Below, piece after piece: positions 8,443-44,346 of a DNA stretch of 64,000 nt. Origin of the DNA: a virus. The stretch lies in IMG/VR virus record IMGVR_UViG_3300005573_000070. One strand, 5' to 3'. Numbering within the stretch: the stretch's first letter is position 1; the number at the start of each line of letters is the position of its first letter. Both the position numbers and the translations under genes were made by a program. The notes beneath the pieces were generated by a model. It saw nothing but the letters and a program-made list of their open reading frames with translations, was not told the DNA's origin and ran no database searches.

Positions 8443-10698
8443 TTACAAGGACTCTTCGTCAACCTTGACAACTTCTTGTTCCCAGACAGGTACTTCTTTA
8501 CCGGTACTGGCCCATACAACTTTCAGTGCCCCGTCGACTTTTTTCTCAACTACAACACCTAGCTCGCCAGTTTTGCGATGCATTACACAATCATAAACAA
8601 ATATAGGCTCGTTAGCGGTCTTGATTTGTTTCTTCTCCGGTTTGAATGAAACACTATCTAACAAACCATCAATTATCGCATTCTTAGTAATCTCAACTTT
8701 AGGAGTTTTTGACTTCAACTGAGCTTCTTTCTCAAGAGTACCATATAAGCAAGTTGAACAATTAGGGTACTCAAGACCGTAAGGGCATGATGAACACAAC
8801 GTCGCTCGCCTGACAACCATTCCGCTAACAGGGCACTCTACCAACGTTTCTTCTATTCTGTCGTTCGTTTCCTCAAAATCAAAAGATCCAGAACTGACAA
8901 TGAGCTCTGATGTACCGTCACTTAATAGTTCGTCATAATTCGTAAGTAGTACCTGGTCACCGTCAGTACCTAGATAAACATACCTGTCTTTACCAACTGT
9001 TATTACACTTCCTACTTTCTTCATAGACCATTTTATAATTGAGATCATTTCTTTTATCCGTTCTCTAACTTCTGGTGGTTCGATCCGATCAAGACCCGAA
9101 TAAATCTTGTCTAAGAAACTGTTCCATAAGTAAGTTGCTGCGGCATATATCGTATCCAATGTTGGGAACGAAGAAAGGAACTGATGAATCCAATCTACTA
9201 CATTTGTTGCGGATTCCCTGATCTTTCTGGCATAGAGACGAATCTCGTTCTTATCTATCTTTGCCTGATAATTTTCACCGTAGTAAGATCGGAACAAGTT
9301 ATCAAGGATCGTGGCAACAGTCTCGTCTGATATAATACCGCTTCCCTTAAACCTGTTATATATTTTGACCATTTCGTCTCGGGTATCTTGCAAAATTCTT
9401 CGTTCTCTTTCTTCAGTGCGTGGAACAGGTCCCTGTTTTCTTCGTTTAAAAAGCTTTGACGCCTGGTCTCTGAAAAATGAGTCAATAGCGTTTTTTACTG
9501 GAATGGCTAACAAGATCTGAGCACCAAATGCGTCAAGAATCTGTTTCTGCGGATCTTCATACTGCATCAACTTACTTATGTCGAGGGCCTCGACAAGATT
9601 TGGTTTCAATATGTTATCGTACCATTTGTCGAACGCGTCTGGACTAACAAAAGAGATCCTGTTCTTGGAAAAATAGTTTTCTATTTCCTGTTTAATGTTG
9701 GCCTTCTTGCTATCAATATCCTGAATGGACCGAATATGGTTCTTAATAATCTCGTATAACTGGGGTTCGAAGTCATGGGGAACCAGCTTACCTGGGGTCA
9801 ATTCTATATATTGTTCTCTTGTCGGATTTAGAAGCTCGTTTATGGCCAAAGCTATCGCACTACGTACCCGATTAACTTTCTGACCACCAACAAATACCGG
9901 AATTATCTTAGTTGTAATAGTTTCTACTATGGCTGGCTCAACGTAATCCTTCATCAACTGACTAAGAGCAACATCGTTGTTTGGCTCAAGATTGACACCG
10001 TTTGCGTTAAGTAACTCAAGAATCAGCGACTTAAGACTATCTAAAAATTTAGTAATATCGTCTTTTTTGTCGGTTACCAAGTACGATTCGACAAGGCTAA
10101 CGAGAACATCTTTGTGCAACTGCTCATAAAACGCGCCCAGAACAAGGTTATACGCCGTTTTGAACATGTTGAGAACCCATTCTCCCCTTTCTGATCTAGG
10201 CGTCTTTGAAATTATCGTTTTTGTTGACAACAATGCCATAATGTTCGACAAGTATTGTAAAACAGGCCTGAACCTAATAAACGGCATGGCCGCGTTCGCG
10301 AGAGTACCGGGTCGGGCTCGTCCCTTTTTGTGTTCGGTAACCAATTGAGAAGCAGCCTGGTCTATTTCGGCAAACAAATCTTTCATTTTTCGGTCTGCTT
10401 CTGATATCATTCGTTGTAAGTCGCTACCAGTCGAAACTTCACCTTCAGCCTCACCACCCGGTAATTCTTCATAAACACTAAAACCGGACTCACCAGGAAC
10501 ATATACGTCCAAATCCTCCTCTTCAAACTGAGCTTTCTTGGTAAAATAGTACAGTTTGAAGATAAGAGGGTCAACAAGTTCGGCCTGGACAACAAACCCA
10601 CGGCCGTCATTATAGACGACCAGATAATCAGGTCCTATATAATAAGCGGTACCACGTTGTCCCGAAATGCTAGAGATTTTAATCCCATAGTCCGACAT
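8443..10698 (-). CDS. large multidomain hypothetical protein (helical core, Cys cluster, C-terminal SH3-like domain); candidate internal head protein
   Basis: Start reassigned to ATG 10698 (GGAGGG RBS). Confidence 0.6.
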   Translation of the reverse strand: MSDYGIKISSISGQRGTAYYIGPDYLVVYNDGRGFVVQAELVDPLIFKLYYFTKKAQFEEEDLDVYVPGESGFSVYEELPGGEAEGEVSTGSDLQRMISEADRKMKDLFAEIDQAASQLVTEHKKGRARPGTLANAAMPFIRFRPVLQYLSNIMALLSTKTIISKTPRSERGEWVLNMFKTAYNLVLGAFYEQLHKDVLVSLVESYLVTDKKDDITKFLDSLKSLILELLNANGVNLEPNNDVALSQLMKDYVEPAIVETITTKIIPVFVGGQKVNRVRSAIALAINELLNPTREQYIELTPGKLVPHDFEPQLYEIIKNHIRSIQDIDSKKANIKQEIENYFSKNRISFVSPDAFDKWYDNILKPNLVEALDISKLMQYEDPQKQILDAFGAQILLAIPVKNAIDSFFRDQASKLFKRRKQGPVPRTEERERRILQDTRDEMVKIYNRFKGSGIISDETVATILDNLFRSYYGENYQAKIDKNEIRLYARKIRESATNVVDWIHQFLSSFPTLDTIYAAATYLWNSFLDKIYSGLDRIEPPEVRERIKEMISIIKWSMKKVGSVITVGKDRYVYLGTDGDQVLLTNYDELLSDGTSELIVSSGSFDFEETNDRIEETLVECPVSGMVVRRATLCSSCPYGLEYPNCSTCLYGTLEKEAQLKSKTPKVEITKNAIIDGLLDSVSFKPEKKQIKTANEPIFVYDCVMHRKTGELGVVVEKKVDGALKVVWASTGKEVPVWEQEVVKVDEESL

Positions 10699-13378
10699 GG
10701 TCTGTCCCTCCCAATATCTCTTCGATTGTTTCAGGCCTTGCAAAGGATTCGTCAAGACCGCCACTCTCGACAGTACCAACTACTTCAGCTTCTGGTGTTT
10801 CTGGTATTTCGGTTTCCGGTTTCTCTTCCTCTTCTACTCCTTCTTCTGTTTCCTGACGAATCTTTTCATATTCTTCAACGTATTCTTGTTTTTCAGCCTC
10901 GACCCTAGCCTTTTCGTATTTCTCTTCCAGATCTTGCTTACGTTTACGAAGGTCACTAATTATTGTGTCCAAACGAGATACAAGATCGTCTAGACCGGTT
11001 CCTTCAGCTCGTTGCTTTTGACGGGACACAACATCAATTTCGGTATCGACTTCTTCAACGGTCTTCTCGTAGATATCAGTTATTTTTTCTGGGTCTCGAC
11101 TGATCTCGTCGGAAACAGCTTGTGCGAAATCATCAGCCGACATTCTTGAGAAATCCTCCGGAGAAAATCTATACAAGACCGGCAAACTACCAATTAAGAA
11201 CTTGGTACCACGAGTACCTTCAGGATACTGGAACACGGTCTTACGAAGGTCTCTTATTACCGTGTTTATTGTGTCAATATACGGAGCAATTGACGTAACT
11301 GCACTATCAAAATCAGGGCCCTTTTTGTCCCTTGCTACCAAAGCCGAAACGTTAGAAACTAGTGCAATCGCTTCTGGAACAATTGTAGATTCTATTTCCT
11401 TCTCTGCTTTCTCTACAACATACATTGTCTTTGTACCTAACGACAAAAGTATACCATCAATAGAAGATACTAGTTTGTCGTAATGTGGTTTTATGTTTTT
11501 ATCGACAATCTCTGTATTAAGATTTTTTGACGCCCAGTCATAAAGAGAACTAACGGCGTCTCTCAATGTACGCAATGTGTTTTCCAACCGGCTTGTGTTG
11601 TCAATAACAGAAGATATCCGATCTATCTCGTTGAAAACGCTCGCAATTTCGTAAACCGTTCTTAGGAAAGGAACATAAAGCATTCCGTATGACCTTGGAA
11701 CCTGTAACCGTCTATGCAATGTAACAGATGTAGGTATATATTCTTTCCACAGATATTTTTCCCTTTCGAAAACTTCTTTGGTTGGAACAGTTTTAGATTT
11801 TGGTTTTTCGGCCCCGAACAAAACTTCCTTAACTCCGAACGATCCGGCTATCTCAACGATTGCAGACCTAACAGCTTTTTCCAAATCAGTTCCGGGACGA
11901 GCCATAACTTTAGCAAGGTTCGACGATATAGTCTTATATGCGTTAATAAAACTCTTGCGGTCAAGAACGTTCCAAGTTGCACTAAAAGTTTGACCAGCAT
12001 ACTCTACAACTGCTGTTACGAAATGGGCGCTCTCTTTAAGTGATGGATTGTACACTTTCCTCATGATCAATTTAACGGCAATGGTCGGAATCACTTGGTT
12101 CGCAACATTTACGACTTTGTTCCGGTAAGTTGTCCTGTACGCATGACGAATACTTTCCTTAACTTTTGGTGGTAAGTCGGCTCTATCTAGAACAGCATCG
12201 AACGTGTCAAGAACAGCACGAATTGCAATTAACCGTCTCAACGCCATAACAGTTGCCGAACTAAGATCAGATAACGCGGAACGAACTTGTTTGTGATAAT
12301 GCTTAGCCAAATCAACGACATTTTTAATGTAAAGAGCAGCCTGGTCAATTCTTTGGCGTTTCTCAAGCGTTGTAGACGCCTTACGAGCCTCTTCAAGAGC
12401 GTCTATTGCATTTTGTAGATCCCCTCTGAAATGGATCCCTGGATAATGCTCTGTCAAGGTTCGTAAATCGTTTACCGCCGTGTCTAACACAGAATCCGTT
12501 TGCTGAATCTCTTTTCGGACCTCTTCAGGAGTTCCGGCCTGTTCTGCGTTGTACAACCGGCGAGATTGGTCTTCCAGGTCCCGATGTAGTTTTCTTAACT
12601 GTTTGATGAAAGGACCAACGTCCCAACCGGTTCCCTCTTCTGGTGATCCAAGAACTTCCGTTTCTATATCTGAGTAAATATCTGGTATAACATTACGGAG
12701 ATCGGACAAAAGACCGAACAACAGTTCGTGTCCCGGACTTTCTTCAGAAAGGGGTCGTGGTTTGAAGGGAAGAGGACTACCTTCAGGCATGTCAAGTAAA
12801 TTACCCAATGTTGTGTATATCGGTTCGCCTACCTTTGCGAAGAAATTGCGCAAAGCTTCTTTCAAGTCTTCAGGTATTGGCCCCGTTTCCTTTATCGTGG
12901 TCAGCTGGTCTATCAAATAGTTCTGTAAAGAATCACAAAGAGCTGTTCTCTGGTCTCGTGGTAAGGACTTTATAAACTGGACAAAAGAATTCTCTGTAAT
13001 GAATGGAAGAGCGCCAACAGGTTTTTTCTCGAGAAAGGAAACGACAACATCGTATGGAAAATTGTCTTTTACTATCGGGATGGTATTGTAGAGACCGATC
13101 CATTTCTTGAGAGTTGTCGTGGGTACTCCTTTGCGGAGATCATGTTCGAACAAAGCCTTGATTATCTCTGGAATGCCTAAAGTATAGCCGGCATCTGACA
13201 ACGATTGTAACCATAACAAAACACGGTCAATATTACCAGAATCACGATTGACCAGTTCTTGTACCTTTTCGAGATGGTCCGGAGTAACTTGGTTAACCGA
13301 TTTAATGTCGTCGAGTAGACCCTTCCATTCGTCAAAACGACTTGCACCACTTTTCAACCATTTACTAAGAACGCTCAC
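10679..13378 (-). CDS. 899-aa helical hypothetical protein; candidate internal head protein
   Basis: GTG start overlaps the ligase TGA; N-terminal SKWLKSG motif; acidic C-terminus. Confidence 0.6.
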   Translation of the reverse strand: MSVLSKWLKSGASRFDEWKGLLDDIKSVNQVTPDHLEKVQELVNRDSGNIDRVLLWLQSLSDAGYTLGIPEIIKALFEHDLRKGVPTTTLKKWIGLYNTIPIVKDNFPYDVVVSFLEKKPVGALPFITENSFVQFIKSLPRDQRTALCDSLQNYLIDQLTTIKETGPIPEDLKEALRNFFAKVGEPIYTTLGNLLDMPEGSPLPFKPRPLSEESPGHELLFGLLSDLRNVIPDIYSDIETEVLGSPEEGTGWDVGPFIKQLRKLHRDLEDQSRRLYNAEQAGTPEEVRKEIQQTDSVLDTAVNDLRTLTEHYPGIHFRGDLQNAIDALEEARKASTTLEKRQRIDQAALYIKNVVDLAKHYHKQVRSALSDLSSATVMALRRLIAIRAVLDTFDAVLDRADLPPKVKESIRHAYRTTYRNKVVNVANQVIPTIAVKLIMRKVYNPSLKESAHFVTAVVEYAGQTFSATWNVLDRKSFINAYKTISSNLAKVMARPGTDLEKAVRSAIVEIAGSFGVKEVLFGAEKPKSKTVPTKEVFEREKYLWKEYIPTSVTLHRRLQVPRSYGMLYVPFLRTVYEIASVFNEIDRISSVIDNTSRLENTLRTLRDAVSSLYDWASKNLNTEIVDKNIKPHYDKLVSSIDGILLSLGTKTMYVVEKAEKEIESTIVPEAIALVSNVSALVARDKKGPDFDSAVTSIAPYIDTINTVIRDLRKTVFQYPEGTRGTKFLIGSLPVLYRFSPEDFSRMSADDFAQAVSDEISRDPEKITDIYEKTVEEVDTEIDVVSRQKQRAEGTGLDDLVSRLDTIISDLRKRKQDLEEKYEKARVEAEKQEYVEEYEKIRQETEEGVEEEEKPETEIPETPEAEVVGTVESGGLDESFARPETIEEILGGTDHVGLWD

Positions 13379-19684: not shown

Positions 19685-20695
19685 TTACATAGTTACTTTC
19701 GATGCTTCTTCAGCTTTCTTGGCTTGTAGTTCGGCCAATTCCTTTTGTAAATCTGCTATTTTTTCTTGCAATTCAGCAATTTGTCTCTGTTTCTCTTGAA
19801 TGTCTTCGTCCAAACCACCTTTCTTTATTGGACCAGTTTTCCCCTTACCATGATATTCGGTTGGTTTCTCTAAAGCTTTTTTAGGTAATATATCTATAGC
19901 CGCTCTTGCAGCATATTCTTCTGATTCTCCACGTTCTAACGCAGATTCCCATATGTGTTTGAACTGCCTACGGACTCTTCTTGGTACCTTTTTCTCTTTA
20001 AGAACTTTTAACCATTCTTCTAATGTTCTCCCGGCCATCTTTTGTAATGTAGCTTCTTTACGAATAGATACTTCCTCAGGAGTCAAAAATTGAGAAGTTT
20101 CCACAACACTAGCAAGTTTCTCGAACTGCGCCGGTTCTTCCTTTGCAAATTTTAACAAACTAAGAACTGTGTACCCGATAACATCTGGCAAAGCAACTTC
20201 GGGAATACTGGATCTCTTTTTGATTGGGCCATGATACTTGGTCGATTTTTCTGAAACTTTACTGAACTGCTTTTGGAACGGCTTCGTTTTTTCGAATGAT
20301 AGGAAGTATTTGTTAATATCGACTTTTTCGGCAGGTTGTGCTTCGTCAACTTTAAATTCTTTTGCTTTTTGTATGTCACCACTTTCACCTTTCGACATAT
20401 ATTTTTCAGGAAGTTTGGTATCAGTAGTTACTTTTACGTCTCCTTCACTCGGAAAACTTACTTTCTTGTCAAAAACCAGTTTCTCTCTAGTACCTGGTTC
20501 CATTACATCCTCGAGTCTGAATTTAAACTCTTCTACGGCCATTTTTTTAGTAGGATACTGGAGATCGCTTTTCATCTCTGGTTCCGATATATACTCTGAC
20601 TTGCTAGGTTTCGGCGGTTTTGGGTATTGTAACTTTTCAACTTCACCCGGAGTTATGTATTTCTCCGTATCTATTTTTACTTTTGTTGAGCTCAT
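19685..20695 (-). CDS. hypothetical protein, K/E-rich with C-terminal coiled coil
   Basis: Start reassigned to ATG 20695 (AGAGGGGG RBS). Confidence 0.6.
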   Translation of the reverse strand: MSSTKVKIDTEKYITPGEVEKLQYPKPPKPSKSEYISEPEMKSDLQYPTKKMAVEEFKFRLEDVMEPGTREKLVFDKKVSFPSEGDVKVTTDTKLPEKYMSKGESGDIQKAKEFKVDEAQPAEKVDINKYFLSFEKTKPFQKQFSKVSEKSTKYHGPIKKRSSIPEVALPDVIGYTVLSLLKFAKEEPAQFEKLASVVETSQFLTPEEVSIRKEATLQKMAGRTLEEWLKVLKEKKVPRRVRRQFKHIWESALERGESEEYAARAAIDILPKKALEKPTEYHGKGKTGPIKKGGLDEDIQEKQRQIAELQEKIADLQKELAELQAKKAEEASKVTM

Positions 20696-20712
20696 GTTTG
20701 AACCCCCTCTTT

Positions 20713-21519
20713 TTAGATAGATTTCGTTACTTGATGGACCGGTCGCCACAATTCGGGTTCATTCTTGTTCTTATTTACGTATTCGTCCCCCGTAACATCA
20801 CCCCAGTCAAACTCTTCCGGTAAAAAGTGCTCAATATAAACTTTTTCCTTCTCAGTCAACGGGAATACTATCTTCAGTTTCGTCCTTCTTCCAGACGTTC
20901 TATATATAGATACTGGTCCTTTCTGGTAAAGGAACGTCGCGGTAGATTTGTCCGGAAAATGACCAGCAAGTCGGTCTATGAAAGGACCAACATCAAGACC
21001 GTTCTGACCAGTTACGATGACCATAATTTCACCGGTATCTCTCTCAACAGCAAAAACGCCTTTCGTGTACTTAGCATCTGGCAGAAACCGTCCCAAATGG
21101 TTTACTACCATGTCCCGATGACTTATAGACGGGTCCGTTTCTATCAACAGGACGGGTTCTTTAGTTGGTAAAAGGTCATCGTAATATATAATCCAACGAC
21201 CAATATAGTCGGCGTTTCGAACATACTCGGACTGACCATGTCGACGAATTATTGGTTCGGACAACTTGGGTATTTTCTTTGACTCAATAAGAACCGTCTT
21301 GATACGATTGCCATATTTCTCTTCAACTTTTTTAAGTGCGTTTCTTAGGTACGGCTCCTCCCCGAAACCTATCAAAATATCACCTATTTTAGTAATATAT
21401 GAGGACGAATCCCAGGGAACGGGTACATAATTGTCGTCGAATAATTCAGAATATGATATCCTAAGATCTCTTACGTTTATATTTCTTGGAACTCCTACTT
21501 TCTTGTTTTGGTTTGTCAT
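20713..21519 (-). CDS. hypothetical protein
   Basis: 268-aa ORF with RBS. Confidence 0.55.
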   Translation of the reverse strand: MTNQNKKVGVPRNINVRDLRISYSELFDDNYVPVPWDSSSYITKIGDILIGFGEEPYLRNALKKVEEKYGNRIKTVLIESKKIPKLSEPIIRRHGQSEYVRNADYIGRWIIYYDDLLPTKEPVLLIETDPSISHRDMVVNHLGRFLPDAKYTKGVFAVERDTGEIMVIVTGQNGLDVGPFIDRLAGHFPDKSTATFLYQKGPVSIYRTSGRRTKLKIVFPLTEKEKVYIEHFLPEEFDWGDVTGDEYVNKNKNEPELWRPVHQVTKSI

Positions 21520-21655
21520 TGCTGCCCTCAGTGGTACTCACTCTTAAATTCATTTCGAGATGCACTAGAAAATCAGATATCTTGTACGCAATATGGATAA
21601 CTTGTGTTCGAAGTCCTAAGATAAAATCTGCCAGGACTCGTTTTACTTTTTTCAT
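21461..21655 (-). CDS. small basic hypothetical protein
   Basis: 64-aa ORF coupled in operon. Confidence 0.4.
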   Translation of the reverse strand: MKKVKRVLADFILGLRTQVIHIAYKISDFLVHLEMNLRVSTTEGSNDKPKQESRSSKKYKRKRS

Positions 21656-21663
21656 TTGACTAT

Positions 21664-21957
21664 TTATTTTATCTCAACTGGCCCTCGACCAGTGTTCGTC
21701 AGACTGGTAAAAATCAGATCAGTTATCATTTTCGCCAAGCTCTCCTCGGACAGTACCTTGGTCTTTTTACCCAAATGGTGCGACATGATTCTGATCAGAA
21801 AATGGATCATTTCCTCTGTAAACGCTAAAACTTTCTGATCAGAATCAAGTCGGGAGTCTATTTCTATTACAAACTCGTGATTTTGTTCAAAGAACTTCCC
21901 AAGTTCCTTTAACTTTCTCCGAGTCTTTAGCTCACTGAACCGAACATGCACCTTCAT
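21664..21957 (-). CDS. hypothetical protein resembling a degenerate HExxH family member
   Basis: FVIEID...EEMIH aligns by eye with YVIEID...HEFCH of 61587-61885. Confidence 0.45.
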   Translation of the reverse strand: MKVHVRFSELKTRRKLKELGKFFEQNHEFVIEIDSRLDSDQKVLAFTEEMIHFLIRIMSHHLGKKTKVLSEESLAKMITDLIFTSLTNTGRGPVEIK

Positions 21958-22337
21958 TTTTTCAGCAAGGTGGTTAAAATATTGATCAAAATATCAGCAA
22001 ACAGTCCAATAAGTACAAATATGAACTGAGTCGTCACTTTTCTCAGGAAATCAATATTGCCTTGGGCTTGTTTATCATACCTATCACGCAATTCTTTAAC
22101 ATCACAATCGTGGTTGTTTGTAATAGCCTCGACCTCAGCAAGACGTTCTCGTAACGACTCAACCTTCTCGAGACGTAAATTGATCTTTTCCAGTTCGGCA
22201 ACAAACCGCCCCTCCATGGAATCTAACCGTTTCGACATTTCCTCAAGTTTAACAACAATAACAGGAACCTGCGACAGACTTCCAAGGTCTTCTTTGCGTC
22301 GCAATTCCATTGTCATGCTTGTCTCCTTCTTTTTCAA
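21954..22337 (-). CDS. coiled-coil protein with C-terminal transmembrane helix (holin/XhlA-like candidate)
   Basis: Heptads followed by FIFVLIGLFADILINILTTLL; likely start ATG 22316. Confidence 0.5.
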   Translation of the reverse strand: MKKKETSMTMELRRKEDLGSLSQVPVIVVKLEEMSKRLDSMEGRFVAELEKINLRLEKVESLRERLAEVEAITNNHDCDVKELRDRYDKQAQGNIDFLRKVTTQFIFVLIGLFADILINILTTLLKK

Positions 22338-22397
22338 TCTAGGGCCTGGATTACAGGCCCTAGATTATGTCCTGGGATAAAGTTGAAACCTTTCGAT

Positions 22398-23183
22398 TTA
22401 GATCTTAAACCAATTAGAACCGTCACTCTGCACTCTAACAGAACCCCACTGTGTAGACAGAGATACAGACGTTGCACCATCTATAGTTTCCGACCCACTA
22501 GCAGCAACAGTTACAGCATTAGTAGAATTATCTATCTTCTTAACAACATAAACTCTGCCAGCTATTCCTGCAGCACTGGGTAAGGTTATAGTAATTGCTC
22601 CAGATGTAGCATCTCCAAGTATTGTATGGTCACCTGCAGTTGCAGTATAGTTTGCAGTTTTTGTTACAATAGGTAATGCAATTGAACCAGCAACGTGTAA
22701 TTTACTATTTGGACTTGTTGTTCCGATGCCAACATTAGTTCCGTCGTCAGAGATAACAGAATCAGCGATCGTTGATGCACCAGAAAACTTTGCAATAGTA
22801 CCAGTTGTACCGGTACCACTAATATTACCTGCTGCTGCGATCGCTACTTTCTCTATTCCACCAGTACCAGTTTGTTTCGATATCGTTACGTTATCCCCTG
22901 CTACAACCTTGTTAAGTAAATAATCAAAGCTCGTGTCGGTACTTGATACCTTAACAAGACCACGACCATGTTCGGACGCGTCAACATCAATTCCGGTTGC
23001 TTGTTCATAAGGTTCCTCGTCTGTTACTCTTACTAACTTACCACTTCCTATGAGAGATAGTATGCCTGGTGATTTTTCAATATCTTCGTCAAATAGCACG
23101 ACAGTCTCGTTTGGTCCTATAGTTGTTCCTTTCCCGTTAATGGTAATCATGATTGGGTTCGAAGAGTTGTTTCTTAGTTTCAT
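22398..23183 (-). CDS. head or tail fibre / decoration protein
   Basis: GIGTTSP..KLHV repeat, G/T/A-rich, C-terminal TITLPSAA..GR.Y.VKK.D...SDGSNW; N-terminus resembles 25134..25610. Confidence 0.7.
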   Translation of the reverse strand: MKLRNNSSNPIMITINGKGTTIGPNETVVLFDEDIEKSPGILSLIGSGKLVRVTDEEPYEQATGIDVDASEHGRGLVKVSSTDTSFDYLLNKVVAGDNVTISKQTGTGGIEKVAIAAAGNISGTGTTGTIAKFSGASTIADSVISDDGTNVGIGTTSPNSKLHVAGSIALPIVTKTANYTATAGDHTILGDATSGAITITLPSAAGIAGRVYVVKKIDNSTNAVTVAASGSETIDGATSVSLSTQWGSVRVQSDGSNWFKI

Positions 23184-23196
23184 CTTTTGGCCTCCT

Positions 23197-23739
23197 TTAA
23201 CTAAGTTTGTTAATAATTTCTTTCAGGGTTCTGAGATGCTTTTCCTCGTCCCGAATTATTTCCTCTATTTTCTCCTTAATTTCAGGATCATCTATTGTGT
23301 CTAACAATCGGCGATACTCTGAAATTCCGCTTTCCTCTTCTTGCATGAATTCTACAATATCATGCTTAAAAACAGATCGCCTCAACCATTTCGCACTAAC
23401 CGATTTTTGGGGGACCATCTCAATAATAAAATACCTAAACTTCGCGTTTTTGATCTCGTCTTCGGTAAACTCGCGAGCTACGTCTACTCTAAACTGGGGT
23501 ACCGCGACGAATAATTTAACGGCTGGTGTCAAGGTAATATTTGCCCTGTTAAACGAGATTTCCTTACCAAACTTCGCGCTTAGCAACTTCGCAGTCGCCT
23601 CATGTCCAACATAGCTCTCAAAATCATCCCCTAATTCACGATTAAACGTTTCCTCATTTACCTCTCTGACGCGCAAATTCGCTTCTTCTGAAGCTGGCAG
23701 CATACTGATACTGAAAGTAGTAGTTATAACGTTTTTCAT
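23197..23739 (-). CDS. acrIII-1: AcrIII-1 (DUF1874) ring-nuclease domain fused to ferritin/rubrerythrin-like domain
   Basis: FSISML, SYVGHEATAKLL, NRANITL, QFR match DUF1874; C-terminal EEE.GI..Y...DEEKH; start ATG 23739 (GGAGGT RBS). Confidence 0.82.
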   Translation of the reverse strand: MKNVITTTFSISMLPASEEANLRVREVNEETFNRELGDDFESYVGHEATAKLLSAKFGKEISFNRANITLTPAVKLFVAVPQFRVDVAREFTEDEIKNAKFRYFIIEMVPQKSVSAKWLRRSVFKHDIVEFMQEEESGISEYRRLLDTIDDPEIKEKIEEIIRDEEKHLRTLKEIINKLS

Positions 23740-23740
23740 G

Positions 23741-24502
23741 CTACCTCCCAGTAACGTTAAATATATCAAGTATGTTCAACAACTGAGCTGTCATTTTGCC
23801 GCCTAAAGATAATGGAATTGGTATAGAACCAAAACCAGATCCCATTGGTGTATAGTTCCATTTATATGGTAAAATATATTTGTCAACAAAAGCGTTTATC
23901 ATATCAATAGCCGTCTTGATTTTTGATCCACGATCTATAGACAAAGACAAACCGTTATCGGAGTATGACAAATCTGTAATAGCCACCGGTACATATTTCT
24001 GAACCAGGGCAAACATTGCGGACATCATTAAAACTAATGGTTCCAAATCAGGAGGTAAATTAGCAATAGTAAAACTAGTCTGGGGCGGATACAAATTAAA
24101 GGCCCTTAACCCTAACCATAACCCGGCCTGTATATCTTCCTCGGACAACATCGCTGACAAAAATGGGGACAACATCTTGCGCAATGAAGTGCATAAACGC
24201 AACTCTTTTGGCGACAAATGGGTGTACGCGAGATAGTAAGTGGTTTCCGAACCGTCCGATCTTACGAACCTGATCAAATAATGGTACCCATCCTTTGACG
24301 AGACTGGTACCTGAGTATCTTCGTACTCAGTCTGGTTCAGAGGTATAGGAGTACTATTTAACTTGACATAATCGCCTTCCTCGGACTGGCTCCTGTACAA
24401 GTTCACACCAACATAAGGATCGGGTTGACCTTGAGCTCTGGCCTGATCTATTTCTTCTTGTATTTCTGGAGGTATGTACCAGTAAACAATGGTATTAAAC
24501 AT
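23741..24502 (-). CDS. putative head-tail adaptor
   Basis: Fn3-like N-terminus, LSYSDNGLSLSIDR segment; located after capsid genes. Confidence 0.55.
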   Translation of the reverse strand: MFNTIVYWYIPPEIQEEIDQARAQGQPDPYVGVNLYRSQSEEGDYVKLNSTPIPLNQTEYEDTQVPVSSKDGYHYLIRFVRSDGSETTYYLAYTHLSPKELRLCTSLRKMLSPFLSAMLSEEDIQAGLWLGLRAFNLYPPQTSFTIANLPPDLEPLVLMMSAMFALVQKYVPVAITDLSYSDNGLSLSIDRGSKIKTAIDMINAFVDKYILPYKWNYTPMGSGFGSIPIPLSLGGKMTAQLLNILDIFNVTGR

Positions 24503-24503
24503 A

Positions 24504-24944
24504 TTACTTATTAATCACTTTAACTAAAATTGCAAATCCGCGTTCTGTTTCTACACCACAAACTTTTTGCCAGCGCTGCTTCTCGGGGTTCCATGCCATC
24601 AGTTGTAAATGCCTCTCTTTTTCGTCTTTCTCTATTTCTGGTAAGACACCATAAGGGTACACCCTAACATCTTGCTGAATGTTACCAACCTCCACCGTGA
24701 GGACGTACTCTTTATTTGGGTCGAGTTCGTTTTCTTCGTGGTTGATCAAACATACTTCAGTATTATCCGGGACTGTCAAAGTCTCATCAGTTACCTCTTG
24801 TATAGAACCGGCTATTCTTGCTTTTAAAACTTTACCTTCACGATGAATCTTGACTTTTTTTTGATCTTCGGGCGGTACGTTCTTCTTATCCCATAACAAT
24901 ATTATGTTTTCTTTTGACCGCCTACATACCCGTGCGTTTAACAT
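24504..24944 (-). CDS. hypothetical virion-module protein
   Basis: 146-aa ORF with GGAGG RBS. Confidence 0.55.
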   Translation of the reverse strand: MLNARVCRRSKENIILLWDKKNVPPEDQKKVKIHREGKVLKARIAGSIQEVTDETLTVPDNTEVCLINHEENELDPNKEYVLTVEVGNIQQDVRVYPYGVLPEIEKDEKERHLQLMAWNPEKQRWQKVCGVETERGFAILVKVINK

Positions 24945-24948
24945 AACC

Positions 24949-25140
24949 TTATCCTCCCTCTTCCTCGATCTCTTTTATTCGTTGTAATATCAAGTTTCGA
25001 CATACAATTCGTTTTTCGAGTGTTAAAATGTTAGTAAGAAGTACCTTATCGTGCACGTTTACCAAAAAATATTTCATAGAACTAACGTTTGGAAGTAAAA
25101 ACCACTTTTCGATAAGATCCGCGTTTAATAATCTTAACTT
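24949..25140 (-). CDS. -1 frame C-terminal extension of 25134..25610
   Basis: Open frame KLRLLNADLIEKWFLLP...RIKEIEEEGG* reached by a -1 slip at A9 (25139-25147). Confidence 0.55.
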   Translation of the reverse strand, partial: KLRLLNADLIEKWFLLPNVSSMKYFLVNVHDKVLLTNILTLEKRIVCRNLILQRIKEIEEEGG

Positions 25141-25610
25141 TTTTTTTGCACAGGAGTTCCGGTTCCTGATTCCGTTAAACTTTCTAACTCTTTCTTAAGA
25201 TCTCCAAGGTCCTGTTCAACGACAACATTTACCGGTTTAACCTCTTTAACAACGGGACTTTCCGCTGATGTAGTAACAATCGAAGGAGTATCAGTAACAA
25301 CAGGAGAATCCTGAGTACCTACAAAAGGGATCGCGTGCTGTGGTTCCGGGAAAACCTCGGGTTCTTCGGTTTCCTTAGGAAGCGTTGAAGCAACAACATT
25401 CTCGTTTTTAGCACTTTCTTTGACCGACTCTTCTTTTTCTGATTTGGTTTCAGTTTCGGTCTCTTCTTTGATAACTAACGACCCTTTTTCGACAAAACTT
25501 TTAATTCGTGGGTCATTTTCCATTTCGGAAGTATACAAAGTACCATCCTTTGGGATGTAAAACTTCCCTATAATGATACCATTCCCCTTGGTGTAATAGA
25601 TCTTTTTCAT
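25134..25610 (-). CDS. putative capsid-associated protein with low-complexity linker
   Basis: 158 aa ending in an A9 tract. Confidence 0.55.
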   Translation of the reverse strand: MKKIYYTKGNGIIIGKFYIPKDGTLYTSEMENDPRIKSFVEKGSLVIKEETETETKSEKEESVKESAKNENVVASTLPKETEEPEVFPEPQHAIPFVGTQDSPVVTDTPSIVTTSAESPVVKEVKPVNVVVEQDLGDLKKELESLTESGTGTPVQKKS

Positions 25611-25615
25611 ATTCG

Positions 25616-26029
25616 TTATCCCTCCTTTTTCGCTTTAATGACCTGACCCTTGATCTTGGTCGGTCTCTTGGCTTCAAGCAATGGGTACATAAGTTTGAGG
25701 CGAAGGCCTCGTTTTTTGACCTCTTCTAAAGTAGGAACATAATTTTCTATAAAGACATAATCATTTAAGGCTTGGACCTCGTAAACTGTAGTACACTGGT
25801 CAAGAATAGACTGAATTTGGTCAATCTTTTCCTGGGTCATCAGGGGCTTGATATTATGTACCTGACAATATTCTCGTTCCGCCTTGATACAGGAAAGGAG
25901 GTTGTCAAGGAAAACGTTCTTGAGATGATTTAATGCGGCTGTTCTGTACTCAAAATAGAGAAGAGGAATAAGGTTTGGAAACTTGATGCTATGCTCGTTA
26001 GTTTTATTATTTCCGTTATCCTCGGTCAT
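25616..26029 (-). CDS. hypothetical protein
   Basis: 137-aa ORF with GAGG RBS. Confidence 0.55.
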   Translation of the reverse strand: MTEDNGNNKTNEHSIKFPNLIPLLYFEYRTAALNHLKNVFLDNLLSCIKAEREYCQVHNIKPLMTQEKIDQIQSILDQCTTVYEVQALNDYVFIENYVPTLEEVKKRGLRLKLMYPLLEAKRPTKIKGQVIKAKKEG

Positions 26030-26039
26030 TTTATTAACC

Positions 26040-26153
26040 TCTTTAAAAAATAAGGCCCGCCAAGCCTATCTTTTCAGGCAAACGTCCCTTTGCAGGGCGG
26101 TGTCGCGGGCCACAAACCTGTTCTAGAGGCCCCTATGAGCCGCGTTTCAGGCG
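26040..26153 (-). ncRNA. candidate structured RNA or multi-stem terminator downstream of the major capsid gene
   Basis: GGCCCGC/GCGGGCC closing stem enclosing CCCT-GCAA-AGGG and GCCT..AGGC, followed by TTATTTTTT. Confidence 0.35.
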
Positions 26154-26297
26154 GTGGTCTGGTCCAATAACGGACCCTAATGACCCCAAAGGGGCCTCTT
26201 GAGTTTAATTTAACCCCTTATTCAGACGGTCTGGTCCAATAAACGGACCTTCTCAGGACAAATAACCTGAGGTAAGGCTAGACCCTAGCCCATAATA
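26154..26297 (-). mobile_element. two tandem miniature-element right-end copies (26154-26178 and 26226-26297)
   Basis: ggtccgttattggaccagaccac, plus a three-hairpin copy directly after the MCP stop. Confidence 0.8.
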
Positions 26298-26302
26298 TAA
26301 CC

Positions 26303-27223
26303 TTATCCGGTTATGTCTAATCTTGCAACACCAGCAGTGTTGTGAATACCCATACCGATTTGTTCCCAGGCAACGATATCAAACTGCTGCTGCGGAACAT
26401 TGTCCCATATCTTAATTTCAACAGCTTTCCTTTCTGGGAGCCTTCCAAGTTTGTCTGGTGTTGTTACACAGTAAATATATCCTTCTTCTAATTTGGTTGC
26501 AAGGATCAGTCTTACCCCGTGTAATACACCAAATTGGCCGGTCTCAATTATTACGTTTAATGAGACCTGATCTAAGTCTTTGGCGTCCCAGCTAAGGACG
26601 TCTTCATAGTATGCGGGATTCATTAAATATGCGAAAGGAACGAGTTGCATTTTAGCGATGGTCGCATATAATTTTGCGAAAGCACTTCTCGCTAAAGGTC
26701 TTGTAACATCAACAGGGATATTTGGACTAACATCAGAAGCTTTTTTGACTAGTTTGAAGATTTCCAAATCTTCTGCTATTGCTACTGCTATAGCTGTTCT
26801 TTCTTTTGCTCTGTCAAATACAGGGTATCTTCTGATTGTTATCTCTTCCCATTTTATGGTTTCGTTGACTGAAATTGGGAAGGTTGGGAACTCAACCCTT
26901 TTTACGTTTGTTTCAACGATAGGTGCTGTACCCCTTGCTGCAATTTTTACAGCACCATACTCAGGAATATCGAGATCGTATACTGGAATCTCGCCCTGAG
27001 GAAGCTCGTCAACAAGTAGCAGTTTTCTACCAACTGCTACGTAATCCAGCCTGTTCTTTAAAGGTGTTTGCATCACGAAAGCTACCCTTTTTGCCCAGTT
27101 TGGAGAAGCAAGCAATTTTGCCCACGCTTGCTCTGCAATTTCTGGACTTACGGGAACAGTTTCGGAAGCTGCTTTCTTTACAAAAGATGAACCTGACCAA
27201 ACTTGTTCAAAATTTGCAGGCAT
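26303..27223 (-). CDS. major capsid protein (HK97-fold)
   Basis: 306 aa after protease and decoration genes; DELPQG..PVYD, FDRAK....AED, G.LHG patterns. Confidence 0.8.
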   Translation of the reverse strand: MPANFEQVWSGSSFVKKAASETVPVSPEIAEQAWAKLLASPNWAKRVAFVMQTPLKNRLDYVAVGRKLLLVDELPQGEIPVYDLDIPEYGAVKIAARGTAPIVETNVKRVEFPTFPISVNETIKWEEITIRRYPVFDRAKERTAIAVAIAEDLEIFKLVKKASDVSPNIPVDVTRPLARSAFAKLYATIAKMQLVPFAYLMNPAYYEDVLSWDAKDLDQVSLNVIIETGQFGVLHGVRLILATKLEEGYIYCVTTPDKLGRLPERKAVEIKIWDNVPQQQFDIVAWEQIGMGIHNTAGVARLDITG

Positions 27224-27297
27224 TTTCGGACACCTCCGACTCCTAAAATCTTTATCATACCTTCTTCGGGATCAACTCGTGTTCAGCTAGTTTAAAT

Positions 27298-27807
27298 CTA
27301 CTTCAATAGTATCAAACATGTTGGATTGTCTGCTGTTGGTTTTCTGAGCAAATACCCAACAAATGTTTTCTCGTTCGTACCATTAGTTACGGATGTTGTT
27401 AAGGTTCCGTGTGTCACATCCACATACACTGCTGCCATCAAGCTAGCGTTCAAGAAATCGTTCTCGTAATTATCAACCACTACTTCAGAACCATCTGCGG
27501 CTGTGAAATAGTTTGGCGCTATTTCAACTAATCCGGACACAATAACTGTTACTAGTCCGGACCCGTACATACCATAATCATCTGAAACTTCGTTTACATA
27601 GGAATTTTTGTGGCATTTCACTAATCCAAGTACCTTGGTATTTGAAGTTACGGGAACAACTTCGCCGTTTGCGTTTAATGTTACAGGTCTTCCGGCATAT
27701 AATACAGCATCAGATTTTGGAGGAAGTGAAACTGGTATGTACGCCGGGCTCTTTACTTCGATACCTATCTTTCTTCCCCAGCTTGAAAATGTTAATGCGT
27801 TTGCCAT
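27298..27807 (-). CDS. capsid decoration/cement protein
   Basis: AGRPV.L...G, GSG.VTV; lies between protease and MCP. Confidence 0.6.
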   Translation of the reverse strand: MANALTFSSWGRKIGIEVKSPAYIPVSLPPKSDAVLYAGRPVTLNANGEVVPVTSNTKVLGLVKCHKNSYVNEVSDDYGMYGSGLVTVIVSGLVEIAPNYFTAADGSEVVVDNYENDFLNASLMAAVYVDVTHGTLTTSVTNGTNEKTFVGYLLRKPTADNPTCLILLK

Positions 27808-41116: not shown

Positions 41117-41971
41117 TTATACAAACCCGCGGTTGCTCTTGTACCACCTGTTTCCTTTTTTGACACGACCAATATACGCGATCGCGTTGTGTTTATGAAT
41201 CGATTCAAAACTCACCACTTTAACACGGAACCATTTAACGTTCTTAAGCCCCGATAATTTGTCAGCGACCCTTCTTGCAAGTCCTTCTACAAAAACAGGG
41301 TTATCATAAGCGTGTTCTGTAACGTATTTCTCGTCCGGTCTTTTAAGGATAGCGTAAACGGGTGAACTCGCTGACTGCTCCGCAATATCAATTAATGTTT
41401 CAAAGTAAACACCAGGAACTTTAGAAACTTCGACTTGTATTGTTACCTCGGCGCGCTGGTTGTGCGCACCCTTCCCAATCTGTTTTTCATGATCGACTAA
41501 ACACATTGCCCGAGAGCACGGACAAACCGTTTGCACTGGAACTGTTACTTGGACAAAATGACGATACGGCGGATAAATTACTGTTATTGCGGAATCGTAA
41601 ACAAGAACTGCTTTCTTCTTAGTTACCGGCGCAATAGATGGTCTTGCAAACCCAAAAGAAAACTTCATATATATATCTTCCAACCCAAGACGATCTCTCA
41701 ACCGCTTCGCCATCCCTTTAAAAGATCGAGGTGATAGAAACTTCCCCGAATGCTCAAACAAAACTTCCGGTAACCGAGACATATCCACACCTTTACGGGT
41801 GCGCGGTAACCTCGCGTAAGCATCAACTCGAGCAAGAACGTGGCTAACCACAAGATCTTGAGCCGAACTGTAAATCAGTGACAGCGGAACTTCCACGTTT
41901 GATACACCTGCTTTGTCGACGACCATTCTTATAGGGTCTGGTTTATGTTGTTCGTCAACAAGTTCCTTCAT
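41117..41971 (-). CDS. folE2: GTP cyclohydrolase IB
   Basis: KGVDMSR, CPCS, HNQR, KRPDE, NPVFVE, ESIH.HNA. Confidence 0.92.
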   Translation of the reverse strand: MKELVDEQHKPDPIRMVVDKAGVSNVEVPLSLIYSSAQDLVVSHVLARVDAYARLPRTRKGVDMSRLPEVLFEHSGKFLSPRSFKGMAKRLRDRLGLEDIYMKFSFGFARPSIAPVTKKKAVLVYDSAITVIYPPYRHFVQVTVPVQTVCPCSRAMCLVDHEKQIGKGAHNQRAEVTIQVEVSKVPGVYFETLIDIAEQSASSPVYAILKRPDEKYVTEHAYDNPVFVEGLARRVADKLSGLKNVKWFRVKVVSFESIHKHNAIAYIGRVKKGNRWYKSNRGFV

Positions 41972-44346
41972 AGACTGACCTCCTTCAGCTTGGTCCTAAA
42001 TTCTGATGGGTTACCGAGTTCGGCGGTCGACCCTAAACGATATCCTATTTCACAGTCAAACGGGATGTCTACGAAAAATCCTTTTATACGCTTTCCCAAA
42101 ATACCAAACATTATAGTTAGCGCTTCCTCACCTTTGTCTTCCGGAATCTCGTATGTAAGAGAATCATGAACAGTTAGTACTAGATAACAGCCTAAGTGCT
42201 TGATTTTTTCATAGACTAAAGCGCCTTTGAACATGGTATAATCGGCCACGGTACTCTGTGGTAAAAAGTTAAGAGCTTGGCGTTCTTCAGAAGCCCGGAC
42301 CTCAAAATCTGACGAGTTTATACCTGGGAACCTGCGAATTCGTCCGAAAAAGTTCTGGAGATACCCGCGCTGTTTCGCGATCGCAATTACTTCCTTACAG
42401 AACTGGTATGTCTTTGGAAAGGATCTAAAGAACGAATCTATAATACCTTGGGCTTCCTCAATGGACATATTATGTTCTTCGGCTATAGATTTTGCTCTCC
42501 GGCCGTACATGATCCCGTACACTACAAATTTTGCAAGCCTTCGACGCTCATCATCAACTTCCTCGACCGGAATATGAAACACCAAAGAAGCAATGACTTT
42601 GAGAGGATCATATCCACTCTCGAATGCCTCCTTCAGTTTGTCATCTTTCGCGTAATGGCAAAGGGCTCGGAGTTCGGCCTGCTTAAAATCAATGCTTGCT
42701 AGAAAGTATCCTTTTTCTGAGATAAAGACGTCCTTAACCTCTTTATCTCTCGGAATGTTCTGGAGATTTGGTTCGCGGCTAGCAAGACGACCAGTAGTAG
42801 TCCCAACTAACGTATAATTTGTGTGTAACCGATTATTGCTGTCACACAATTCGAGGAAGTTCTTAAAGTACGTGCTTAGTAACTTTTTCTTTTTGCGGTA
42901 ATCTAGTATCAGATCTATTACCGGATGGTAGTTACGTAACTTCTCAAGGGTAAATGTATCGGTTGACGGGTTTCCAGATGATGTTTTATAAAATGCGGGT
43001 AGCTTCAACTTCTCATAAAGAACTTTTGATAGGTCTCGAACCGAGTTAATATTAATCTTTTCACCGATCAAGTCAAAAATGCGCTGTTCGATCATACTAA
43101 GATCCTGCTCATATTGCGAGGACAGCTGTTTAACGTAATCAATATCTATCTTAACGCCATGTATTCGTGTATCAACGAGCATCTGTATAGTTGGAATATT
43201 TAACTTGAGGTGAAGTTTCGCGAGAGAATCCGGCAACAGCTTTACCATTTCTTGGTATAAAAGAAACGTTGCGTGGGCATCTGCGCAATTATACTTGAGA
43301 ACGATATCCGTATCAACGCCACCGGGCCTATCTTCGTCAGCAAGAGCGACGTAATCACTTTCGTACCCACCTTTTCCAAGATACTTCCAAATGATGTTTT
43401 TAAGTCCATATTTTCGAGCCGTTTCGTCCAATAAATGTGCGATGATCATAGTATCGCCGTAAAGGTTTCTACATTCTATACCAAATTCTTTCTTGAGATA
43501 CATTAAGTCGAACATTGCGTTGTGAAATATCTTCTTGGATTCGTTACTAAATAACCGTTTGAGATGATCTGCGATCTGACAAAGGTCAGAATCGGACCAG
43601 TACAGCGAACCGTCTGGTTTTCTGACGGGAAATCCGAATGTAAGATCGCCAGATGAAAATGCAATCGTAAAAATTACAGATTCGTACAAAATGTCTGATG
43701 TTTCGGTGTCGCAACTCCACAACGGTTTTTGCTCCAGCAATTTTATACACCGAATAATTTCGTCCTTGTCAAAAAGCACTTTGTAACTTTCGAAGGACCA
43801 GTTATATGGATCCGCCCCACGCCATTCAACAACCCGTTTGAGTGTCTGTTCAACAATTTTCGTCTTGGAAGGGTCACGCAAAAGAGCGGCCGGATGATAA
43901 GTTGGTACGAAGATAGTACCGTTCTGTTTAAAAGGAATTCCTTCCGAATTTTGTAAATTGCGCCTGTTCCCGAGGAAACGTTTAATAGCAACGTTCCCGA
44001 GCAACAAAACAATTTTTGGTTTAACTCTGAACAGCTCTTGATCTAGTCGGGCACTACACGCTTCTATTATATCAGCAGAAGGAGCAACATTGTTGCCGTT
44101 TTCATCTGTTGGTCGGCACGCAACAACATTCGTGATAAAGCATTTGGATCGATCTATTCCAACTTTCTGTAGCAATGACGTAAGAAGTTGACCAGATCGA
44201 CCAACAAAAGGAAGTCCTTGCTTCTCCTCTTCAGCACCGGGAGCCTCTCCAACAATGACCAATTCGGCATTTACCGGTCCGGTACCAGGAACAGGTTTCT
44301 TCCCGTACAAAGGACAACCTTTACAAGTTAACGTAATTTCTTCCAT
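41968..44346 (-). CDS. polA: family A DNA polymerase with N-terminal family-4 uracil-DNA glycosylase domain and 3'-5' exonuclease
   Basis: CxxC, GEAPG, PFVGRSG, CRP, YHPA; DTET, HNAMFD; DFKQAELR, R..AK...YG..YG, VHDS. Confidence 0.93.
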   Translation of the reverse strand: MEEITLTCKGCPLYGKKPVPGTGPVNAELVIVGEAPGAEEEKQGLPFVGRSGQLLTSLLQKVGIDRSKCFITNVVACRPTDENGNNVAPSADIIEACSARLDQELFRVKPKIVLLLGNVAIKRFLGNRRNLQNSEGIPFKQNGTIFVPTYHPAALLRDPSKTKIVEQTLKRVVEWRGADPYNWSFESYKVLFDKDEIIRCIKLLEQKPLWSCDTETSDILYESVIFTIAFSSGDLTFGFPVRKPDGSLYWSDSDLCQIADHLKRLFSNESKKIFHNAMFDLMYLKKEFGIECRNLYGDTMIIAHLLDETARKYGLKNIIWKYLGKGGYESDYVALADEDRPGGVDTDIVLKYNCADAHATFLLYQEMVKLLPDSLAKLHLKLNIPTIQMLVDTRIHGVKIDIDYVKQLSSQYEQDLSMIEQRIFDLIGEKININSVRDLSKVLYEKLKLPAFYKTSSGNPSTDTFTLEKLRNYHPVIDLILDYRKKKKLLSTYFKNFLELCDSNNRLHTNYTLVGTTTGRLASREPNLQNIPRDKEVKDVFISEKGYFLASIDFKQAELRALCHYAKDDKLKEAFESGYDPLKVIASLVFHIPVEEVDDERRRLAKFVVYGIMYGRRAKSIAEEHNMSIEEAQGIIDSFFRSFPKTYQFCKEVIAIAKQRGYLQNFFGRIRRFPGINSSDFEVRASEERQALNFLPQSTVADYTMFKGALVYEKIKHLGCYLVLTVHDSLTYEIPEDKGEEALTIMFGILGKRIKGFFVDIPFDCEIGYRLGSTAELGNPSEFRTKLKEVSL

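Follow-up and report, generated by a model that had tools for sequence, protein, structure and literature searches.

A predicted ring nuclease fused to a half-ferritin hairpin in the head-tail gene block of a hot-spring myovirus

To our knowledge, AcrIII-1 is the only widespread enzymatic anti-CRISPR directed against type III signaling. The late expression of some viral copies has put its role in natural infection in dispute. In the SIRV1 enzyme, gp29, the general acid is His47, whose conservation is absolute; the dimer is locked in its closed form by Arg85, and cyclic tetra-adenylate (cA4) is contacted by N8, S11, N13, S49, T50, R66, and Q81; the DUF1874 gene of phage THSA-485A abolished cA4-based immunity (10.1101/778746). 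Here, we describe a gene in a 64,000-nucleotide stretch of viral DNA (IMG/VR record IMGVR_UViG_3300005573_000070; the window, hereafter, means this whole stretch) whose product joins a domain of this kind to a single ferritin-like helical hairpin. The N-terminal domain has the Pfam family, the fold, and the catalytic histidine of AcrIII-1 (SIRV1 gp29, STIV B116, AFV3-109, and THSA-485A) and of Crn2; like them, it is of viral origin, comprises about 110 residues, and keeps the equivalents of Arg85, Arg66, Thr50, and Ser11. It differs from AcrIII-1 in the addition of a 66-residue C-terminal half-ferritin and in being encoded by a tailed phage within a late operon of head and tail genes, and the domain itself is only ∼19%–28% identical to the solved AcrIII-1 proteins in structural alignments.

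A DUF1874 domain is likewise joined to a second module in the Csx1-Crn2 protein of Marinitoga (8y7f/8y7g; 10.1101/2020.03.11.987685), which the structural search described below recovered with an E value of 2e-5. There a cA4-activated RNase of a host CRISPR locus carries the nuclease at its C terminus, which makes it an effector that limits itself, whereas in the window the partner is a phage-encoded, predicted metal-binding hairpin and the nuclease is N-terminal. Both Csx1-Crn2 and the presence of AcrIII-1 in tailed phages were already known. The fusion of a ring nuclease to a half-ferritin is real and undescribed: in the searchable literature, no publication was found that names DUF1874 together with ferritin, and among 1.84 billion representative proteins, the architecture was confined to one cluster at 50% identity. 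The most informative new facts are the existence of a resident stand-alone hairpin, a single junction, and a clean gain/loss polymorphism at 97% identity of the adjacent gene.

The gene (P0001) occupies positions 23197..23739 on the minus strand and encodes 180 amino acids plus a stop codon, running from an ATG at 23737–23739 to a TAA at 23197–23199. Its start is common to the window and two related contigs, L001 and L021. A TTG further upstream would give a protein of 190 amino acids, but this form is unlikely, since both relatives use the same ATG and the family alignments start at residue 4–5. The fused reading frame was unbroken in contigs from four independent hot-spring metagenome runs belonging to four studies (2017–2025), two of them near-identical to the window and two diverged relatives, and is therefore neither an assembly nor a frameshift artifact. 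An earlier note on this DNA, made from the letters alone, had drawn attention to a DUF1874-like beginning, a SAKWLRRSV linker, and metal-site motifs, and had known of no such fusion. Its motifs are all found in the translation (FSISML, VGHEATAKLL, FNRANITL, QFRVDVARE, SAKWLRRSV, EEESGISEY, and DEEKH), and the searches above agree with it on novelty. An AlphaFold2 model computed from 80 family members has a mean predicted local distance difference test (pLDDT) score of 87.9.

The DUF1874/STIV_B116-like (AcrIII-1/Crn2) domain spans residues 1–111 (23407..23739, minus strand) and is supported by Pfam, PHROG, and Foldseek. Residues 16–102 score 37.7 bits with PF08960 (STIV_B116-like, formerly DUF1874), for which the curated cut-off is 26; the domain also matches phrog_5063 at 3.6e-14, and HMMER searches with its sequence recovered AFV3-109, SIRV1 gp29, and STIV B116 from the PDB. 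In the model, most of the domain has pLDDT above 90. The top 16 Foldseek matches in the PDB are all DUF1874 structures, with target-normalized template modeling (TM) scores of 0.74–0.88. The best of these is gp29 in complex with cA4 (6scf; E value 6.6e-8), and 2j6b, 2x4i, 2j85, and the Csx1-Crn2 entries follow within a range of 7e-8 to 4e-5. The protein of Thermoanaerobacterium phage THSA-485A is among the matches in the viral structure library BFVD. Both profile and predicted fold thus bear out the assignment of the first ∼110 residues to DUF1874.

The catalytic histidine of the GH motif, which the earlier note had also pointed out, is retained. The alignment of HMMER to 2x4i equates His46 (codon 23602..23604, minus strand) with His47 of gp29, and it is invariant in 80 homologs. 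By the same alignment, Arg85, Arg66, Thr50, and Ser11 of gp29 correspond to R84, R65, T49, and S10, while Q82 of the window lies two positions past the column of gp29 Q81, one residue later than expected. Across the 80 homologs, the invariant or near-invariant positions are M13, H46, T49, S10, A50, R65, R84, and E95, and the cA4-contacting residues that are kept are those near-invariant in the family. Since the catalytic histidine and the main cA4 contacts are kept and are conserved in homologs, the domain is likely an active cA4 ring nuclease. AcrIII-1 assays were performed in EDTA (10.1101/778746), which indicates that a metal site is dispensable for catalysis.

The remainder of the protein, residues 115–180 (23200..23397, minus strand), is a helix-loop-helix whose helices comprise residues 116–148 and 152–179 in the model. 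The protein ends with helix 2, and a third helix is absent. Against the Rubrerythrin profile of Pfam (cut-off 22.8), the whole protein scores 21.7 bits and residues 112–180 alone score 23.9 bits; a stand-alone homolog of 69 amino acids, P0097, reaches 26.3 bits and also passes the Ferritin profile (24.6 bits; cut-off 24.5). A profile of the hairpin matches PDB entry 9viw (“Bacterioferritin”, 306 amino acids) at an E value of 6.9e-8 and, after it, the designed helix-loop-helix peptides known as “due ferri” (DF), which dimerize around a two-metal site. The hairpin superposes at ∼1 Å over 56–60 residues on the encapsulated ferritins (EncFtn) of R. rubrum (Rru_A0973; 5da5) and Pyrococcus (5n5e), on M. 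xanthus EncB (7s5c), and on DF1. Given how simple a fold the helical hairpin is, this superposition is weak evidence by itself; the spacing of the putative metal ligands carries more weight. Glu135 in helix 1 (codon 23335..23337), Tyr142 (codon 23314–23316), and Glu165 and His168 of an ExxH motif in helix 2 (codons 23236..23247; all on the minus strand) are invariant in all fused and stand-alone homologs and correspond, at a constant offset of 103, to Glu32, Tyr39, Glu62, and His65 of R. rubrum EncFtn. In EncFtn, these residues build a di-iron center where the two subunits of a dimer meet, and the protein assembles in a metal-dependent manner (PMC5012862).

EncFtn and DF1 are two-helix proteins that need a partner chain, as the hairpin appears to, and EncFtn has the identical Glu/Tyr/Glu-x-x-His spacing. 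The closest relatives in sequence are nevertheless rubrerythrin- and bacterioferritin-like proteins (9viw and P0108, below) and not EncFtn. The EncFtn-like family PF22277 gave no match with the fusion protein and 15 bits with P0097, against a cut-off of 27. A complete four-helix bundle would hold two E...ExxH pairs per chain; the window protein has two helices and one such set, and a full metal site therefore needs two chains. The description of the C terminus as a ferritin-like domain is accordingly right with respect to the metal motif and too generous with respect to its extent: by its sequence and modeled fold, it is half of a ferritin-like bundle, predicted to bind metal only upon pairing.

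The nearest cellular relative of the hairpin that was found is P0108 (34% identity; E value 1e-8), a double ferritin-like protein of 308 amino acids ending in FTVGSLLNKK, a TVGSL-type targeting peptide (L031:4001-5779). Its gene lies downstream of rubredoxin-like genes and a sigma factor gene and immediately upstream of a gene for an encapsulin shell (PF04454, Linocin_M18); the locus looks like a typical encapsulin cargo operon, and P0108 resembles 9viw. In the fusion protein, no C-terminal localization peptide of the encapsulin type was found, and no encapsulin shell gene lies next to the fusion gene, the neighbors of which are phage head and tail genes. Small proteins of related type occur elsewhere. 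The BFVD matches include an 87-amino-acid ferritin-/rubrerythrin-like protein of Pyrobaculum filamentous virus 1 and a 128-amino-acid “ferritin-like protein” of an uncultured myovirus, and stand-alone Rubrerythrin mini-proteins of 64–73 amino acids form clusters in Bacillota and other phyla.

The origin of the fusion can be read from relatives of the window. Among the 1.84 billion representatives, 290 relatives were found, nearly all of them stand-alone DUF1874 proteins of ∼105–115 amino acids. P0097 is 53% identical to residues 117–176 of the fusion. The order of genes in its phage matches that of the window: a protease fusion, a 167-amino-acid protein, the capsid protein (88% identity), a 146-amino-acid protein (73%), a 243-amino-acid protein (76%), the hairpin, and, past it, homologs of the genes that follow in the window. 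More relatives were gathered by a metagenome scan anchored on the 253-amino-acid gene immediately upstream of the fusion. In L017/L018, L022, and L024, a stand-alone hairpin of 69–76 amino acids (70 in L022, 76 in L024) directly follows the homolog of this gene, whereas L001 and L021 have the nuclease domain at the same site, the contig of L021 ending inside that domain. The hairpin of the fusion is 52%–78% identical to P0097 and the L022 and L024 proteins. Two further searches for stand-alone hairpins added none: a word-indexed search with P0097 returned only itself, and a scan of viral contigs returned only the contig of L001.

Window and L001 share the identical junction QKSVSAKW. The linker SVSAKWL (residues 113–119; 23383..23403, minus strand) is disordered in the model, with pLDDT below 50, and corresponds to the N terminus of the stand-alone hairpins. 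At the DNA level, L022 reads ATG AGG AAC GTT / AGT GCG AAA TGG, L021 reads ATG AGG AAC GTT / ATA ACT..., and the window junction reads ...TCG GTT / AGT GCG AAA TGG, the slash marking the border. L022 is thus the fusion minus codons 5–114, an in-frame difference of 330 nucleotides (23398..23727, minus strand) with a GTTA microhomology at both ends, and it retains a second codon specific to L021. In a tree of the adjacent gene, fused L021 and stand-alone L022 are sisters (97% nucleotide identity; support 100/99), L017 roots outside, and the placement of L024 (73%–77% nucleotide identity) lacks resolution. The first codons appear native to the nuclease gene, since an otherwise different fusion on contig L002 (see below) starts with the same MKxVITTTFS. 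The simplest history suggested by these sequences has a DUF1874 gene grafted a single time onto the 5′ end of a resident hairpin gene and later lost again, precisely and in frame, on at least one occasion.

From the stand-alone hairpins at the same position, the single junction, and the exact loss in L022, the comparison indicates that the resident, fixed element is the hairpin, to which the nuclease is a removable addition. The earlier view of the second domain as a tag added to the nuclease is thereby reversed. Both parts are under purifying selection: the ratio of nonsynonymous to synonymous substitution rates (dN/dS) is 0.017–0.03 for the nuclease domain (window versus L001 and L021) and ∼0.1 for the hairpin (dN 0.137 and dS 1.40; window versus L022). 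No conserved internal start was found in the fusion gene, M108 being I or T in relatives, and no separate copy of the hairpin was seen in fusion-bearing phages. Given the lack of a conserved internal start, the hairpin appears to be produced in these phages solely as the tail of the nuclease. The 330-nucleotide deletion was present in no contig of the four runs examined, which is no evidence of absence because contigs drop rare variants. Smaller variation is also seen around the fusion. The linker varies in length by one codon at 23401–23403, where run X3 has TTT inserted after 23403, giving an extra lysine that is also present in P0008 and P0010 (QKKSVS or PKKSVS). P0009, a fusion variant on a 681-bp ENA contig, has its last ∼20 residues out of frame and has lost the ExxH motif, which could reflect either an error of sequencing or the decay of the allele.

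The fusion gene is embedded in a co-directional block that runs from a portal gene (phrog_16240) through genes for a 773-amino-acid protease-containing protein, a 169-amino-acid protein, the major capsid protein, and four small proteins to the fusion, and continues with a fibre/baseplate-like gene, many genes of unknown proteins, and a tail sheath gene at 2792–4201. The capsid gene (26303..27223, minus strand; phrog_2522 at 5.6e-36), whose product is 29% identical to the major head protein of Bacillus phage G, lies 2.6 kb upstream of the fusion, with the portal and protease genes beyond. Location within a late structural block, as the earlier note had it, is thus well founded. The note placed the gene between a head-tail adaptor and a fibre gene, and the second of these identities holds: the downstream gene for a 261-amino-acid protein (22398..23183, minus strand; phrog_37034 and phrog_20556) begins 13 nucleotides past the stop codon of the fusion and has a fibre/baseplate-like C terminus. 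A homolog is present in L024 and absent from L001 and L017. The adaptor identity is putative. The upstream 253-amino-acid gene (23741..24502, minus strand) is the syntenic anchor, 76%–89% identical in all relatives, and its product matches no Pfam or PHROG family; its model (pLDDT 67) has Fn3-like matches only, for the N-terminal domain, and adaptor and head-completion families are language-model leads only. It is a possible head-tail adaptor or head-completion protein. The stop codon of this gene (23741–23743) is separated from the ATG of the fusion by one nucleotide, and a GGGAGG ribosome-binding site (23744..23749, minus strand) lies within its end. A scan of 20500–27500 yielded no promoter-like sites above chance, and none stands out before the fusion gene; terminator-like structures likewise did not exceed the chance count. 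The tight coupling within a structural block and the lack of a separate promoter signal argue strongly for late co-expression of the fusion with the structural genes. A terminator-like hairpin with a T-run, at 26053–26067 (minus strand) between the capsid gene and the next gene, may attenuate transcription past the capsid gene.

On balance, we favor a working mode in which a ring nuclease is produced with the late proteins and metal-dependent pairing of the hairpins reinforces or multimerizes its obligate dimer. Two nuclease modules would form the cA4 pocket, as in the AcrIII-1 family, and His46 would act as the general acid in cleavage of cA4 to linear A2 products. Removal of cA4 would silence cA4-activated type III CRISPR effectors, presumably to the benefit of the phage. 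A pair of hairpins would make up a four-helix bundle, in which E135, E165, and H168 of each chain would form a two-metal site and Y142 would lie nearby. The hairpin would thus provide a second, probably metal-dependent, pairing interface that either holds the nuclease dimer or builds larger assemblies. Prediction of a complex of two full-length copies gave a score of 0.18 (mark 0.32) and is used neither for nor against pairing. The enzyme would be made with the late transcripts, at a time when type III defense relies on effectors activated by cyclic oligoadenylates. In the staphylococcal type III-A system, defense against a late-expressed target requires the cyclic-oligoadenylate-activated RNase Csm6 (PMC11708336), so that late timing need not be pointless.

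Several observations weigh against this working mode. Three of the cA4-contacting positions are changed relative to gp29 (N8 to T7, N13 to S12, and S49 to A48). A scan of genome contigs by family alignment, made to find a host, returned one unrelated metagenome-assembled genome of an uncultured bacterium, at 43% identity. The clean loss of the nuclease in L022 implies that the hairpin is independent of it, and the coupling of the two may then be incidental, while the L002 contig carries a 75%-identical nuclease on another domain, which implies that the partner is interchangeable. Finally, SIRV2 gp37, a ring nuclease of the middle/late phase, had no anti-CRISPR effect in native infection (10.1101/2023.01.10.523387). 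The same protein, together with the existence of other DUF1874 fusions, makes it contested that AcrIII-1 is usually a stand-alone early gene, as the earlier note had assumed; 2 of 24 crenarchaeal viral ring-nuclease genes lie behind an early anti-defense promoter (10.1101/2023.01.10.523387).

If the coupling is indeed incidental, a mobile DUF1874 cassette inserted between two late genes would have lost its stop codon and now read into the next small gene. The halves would act independently, the nuclease free in the cytoplasm and the hairpin in iron/peroxide handling or assembly, and the join would give them shared expression only. The position of the junction, exactly at the N terminus of the resident gene and bridged by a disordered linker, is what such an accident would leave; the many unrelated extensions known for DUF1874, the L002 case among them, fit as well, and in L022 the hairpin works alone. 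We nonetheless regard this explanation as unlikely. The fusion persists through near-saturated synonymous divergence between the window and L001, which disfavors pure accident, is carried by at least nine distinct protein clusters, and recurs in runs from 2017 to 2025, during all of which neither a stop codon nor an internal start was regained and both halves stayed under purifying selection. Moreover, a cooperative effect is plausible, as two-fold symmetric dimers are predicted for both parts. A different objection concerns the enzyme itself: the DUF1874 domain might act outside CRISPR, on another nucleotide signal, as a sponge, or as a binder of a host protein. SIRV2 gp37 binds a lysine methyltransferase and has a CRISPR-independent activity (10.1101/2023.01.10.523387), and the changed contact residues leave room for such a role. 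But the catalytic histidine and the Arg/Thr/Ser contacts, the most conserved positions of the family, are kept; the methyltransferase partner is restricted to Crenarchaeota (10.1101/2023.01.10.523387), whereas the phage of the window has bacterial-type RecA, PolA, and DnaB; and the homolog of THSA-485A, which blocks cA4-based immunity (10.1101/778746), is among the best viral fold matches. Given the residue conservation, this is the least likely of the readings and is judged very improbable.

The late position of the gene would have a different meaning if the half-ferritin were a virion component, inside the capsid or associated with the neck, that loads the nuclease into particles. The enzyme would then enter the next cell with the DNA and clear cA4 from the first minute, which would solve the timing problem of late expression; this reading sharpens the proposal of the earlier note that the protein is packaged and injected. 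Anti-defense genes lie among late morphogenesis genes in T4 (IPI and Alt) and P1 (DarA, DarB, and Hdf) (PMC5512222), as does the putative one of the window; those proteins are packaged in the virion, whereas packaging of the window protein is a conjecture from gene position. T4 Alt and IPI, P1 DarA/B, and the virion RNA polymerase of N4 serve as precedents (PMC5512222). In every relative seen, the hairpin gene holds the same place in the head-tail block, directly after the putative adaptor/head-completion gene, and because the hairpin is apparently made only as a fusion, the nuclease goes where the hairpin goes. P0108 belongs to the ferritin-like cargo proteins of encapsulins, EncFtn can be superposed on the hairpin, and encapsulin shells and the capsid protein of the window share an HK97-like lineage (PMC8229669). 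The N-terminal [S/A][K/Q]WLK motif recurs in two other window proteins. On the other side, the protein stops at helix 2 without a localization peptide of the encapsulin type, the conservation of position is confined to one shallow clade (neighboring proteins 76%–89% identical), morons and accessory genes are common in late operons, and the L002 fusion partner comes from early/accessory regions. The WL[K/R] “protease/cargo code” proposed earlier did not survive comparison with shuffled sequences, as W[LIT][KR] occurs 9 times against 5.5 ± 2.4 expected and so shows no overall enrichment, and only the N-terminal occurrences remain a lead. Packaging and injection are unlikely in our estimation, and the more specific proposal that the half-ferritin is a virion-internal cargo or neck protein, a phage equivalent of the ferritin-like cargo of HK97-fold encapsulins, which would carry a pre-made cA4-degrading enzyme, is more doubtful still. 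We know of no anti-CRISPR enzyme that is delivered by the virion, and a literature search on the idea gave nothing relevant.

Should packaging nevertheless be true, the protein would be the first virion-delivered anti-CRISPR enzyme and would answer the objection that a late AcrIII-1 comes too late. The locus bears on the dispute over AcrIII-1. Its nuclease copy belongs to a late operon and is under strong conservation, although close relatives of the phage may have it or lack it, and it is covalently joined to a small, predicted metal-binding protein retained throughout the phage clade. The join could be a dimer clamp, a means of virion delivery, or an accident, alternatives that can be tested, and the fused and cleanly deleted alleles form a natural pair for comparison. 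The hairpin also points to ferritin-like proteins of a single hairpin, encoded in phage head-tail operons, as an uncharacterized class; with a ferritin-like encapsulin cargo as the nearest cellular relative found, they may be informative on how capsids and encapsulins are related.

DUF1874 occurs with many unrelated N- and C-terminal extensions, and the L002 fusion shows how different the partner can be. The protein in question, P0011 (202 amino acids; L002:10001-10609 of IMGVR_UViG_3300042965_000182), joins the DUF1874 domain to a different C-terminal domain of ∼90 amino acids. The gene is flanked by one of tail-sheath-like type (phrog_279) and by a probable tube gene, and the myovirus that carries it is not otherwise related to the phage of the window. 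The partner domain has 44 stand-alone relatives of 80–110 amino acids without a Pfam family; a resemblance to DUF2958 was not supported by Pfam. In the two contexts examined, in phages and prophages, these relatives lie in early/accessory regions near genes for integrase, RecT, and endonuclease VII, and the idea that DUF1874 generally rides on small structural proteins was rejected on this ground.

The samples are hot-spring metagenomes, and the replication genes of the phage of the window are of bacterial type, encoding RecA, DnaB, and a family A DNA polymerase with uracil-DNA glycosylase and exonuclease domains. This last is a 792-amino-acid protein (41968–44346, minus strand) in which an N-terminal domain of the uracil-DNA-glycosylase superfamily and a 3′-5′ exonuclease domain accompany the polymerase. 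Searches of cultured phages with the capsid protein and the polymerase gave only matches below 30% identity, and a repeat search of the window yielded no usable consensus of a miniature insertion sequence for tracing the host. Within the structural block, the genes for a 158-amino-acid protein (25134–25610) and a 42-amino-acid reading frame (24949–25077), both on the minus strand, correspond to one reading frame of 237 amino acids in L001 (8065–8778), so the window gene at 24949–25610 appears to be split or truncated. Two further proteins of the window resemble the stand-alone hairpins at their N termini, which read MRNVSAKWLKQS in L022 and NKWLK in L024. An 899-amino-acid protein (10679–13378; motif at 13352–13378, minus strand) begins MSVLSKWLKSGASRFD, and the protein at 57812–59503 (motif at 59477–59503, minus strand) begins MSQWLKVAEEEE, its real start probably being the ATG that follows an AGGAGG site. 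Chance would account for about 0.03 N-terminal matches of this kind, a rough estimate for a motif defined after the fact; the KWLK-type motif could be a shared signal or just a helix cap.

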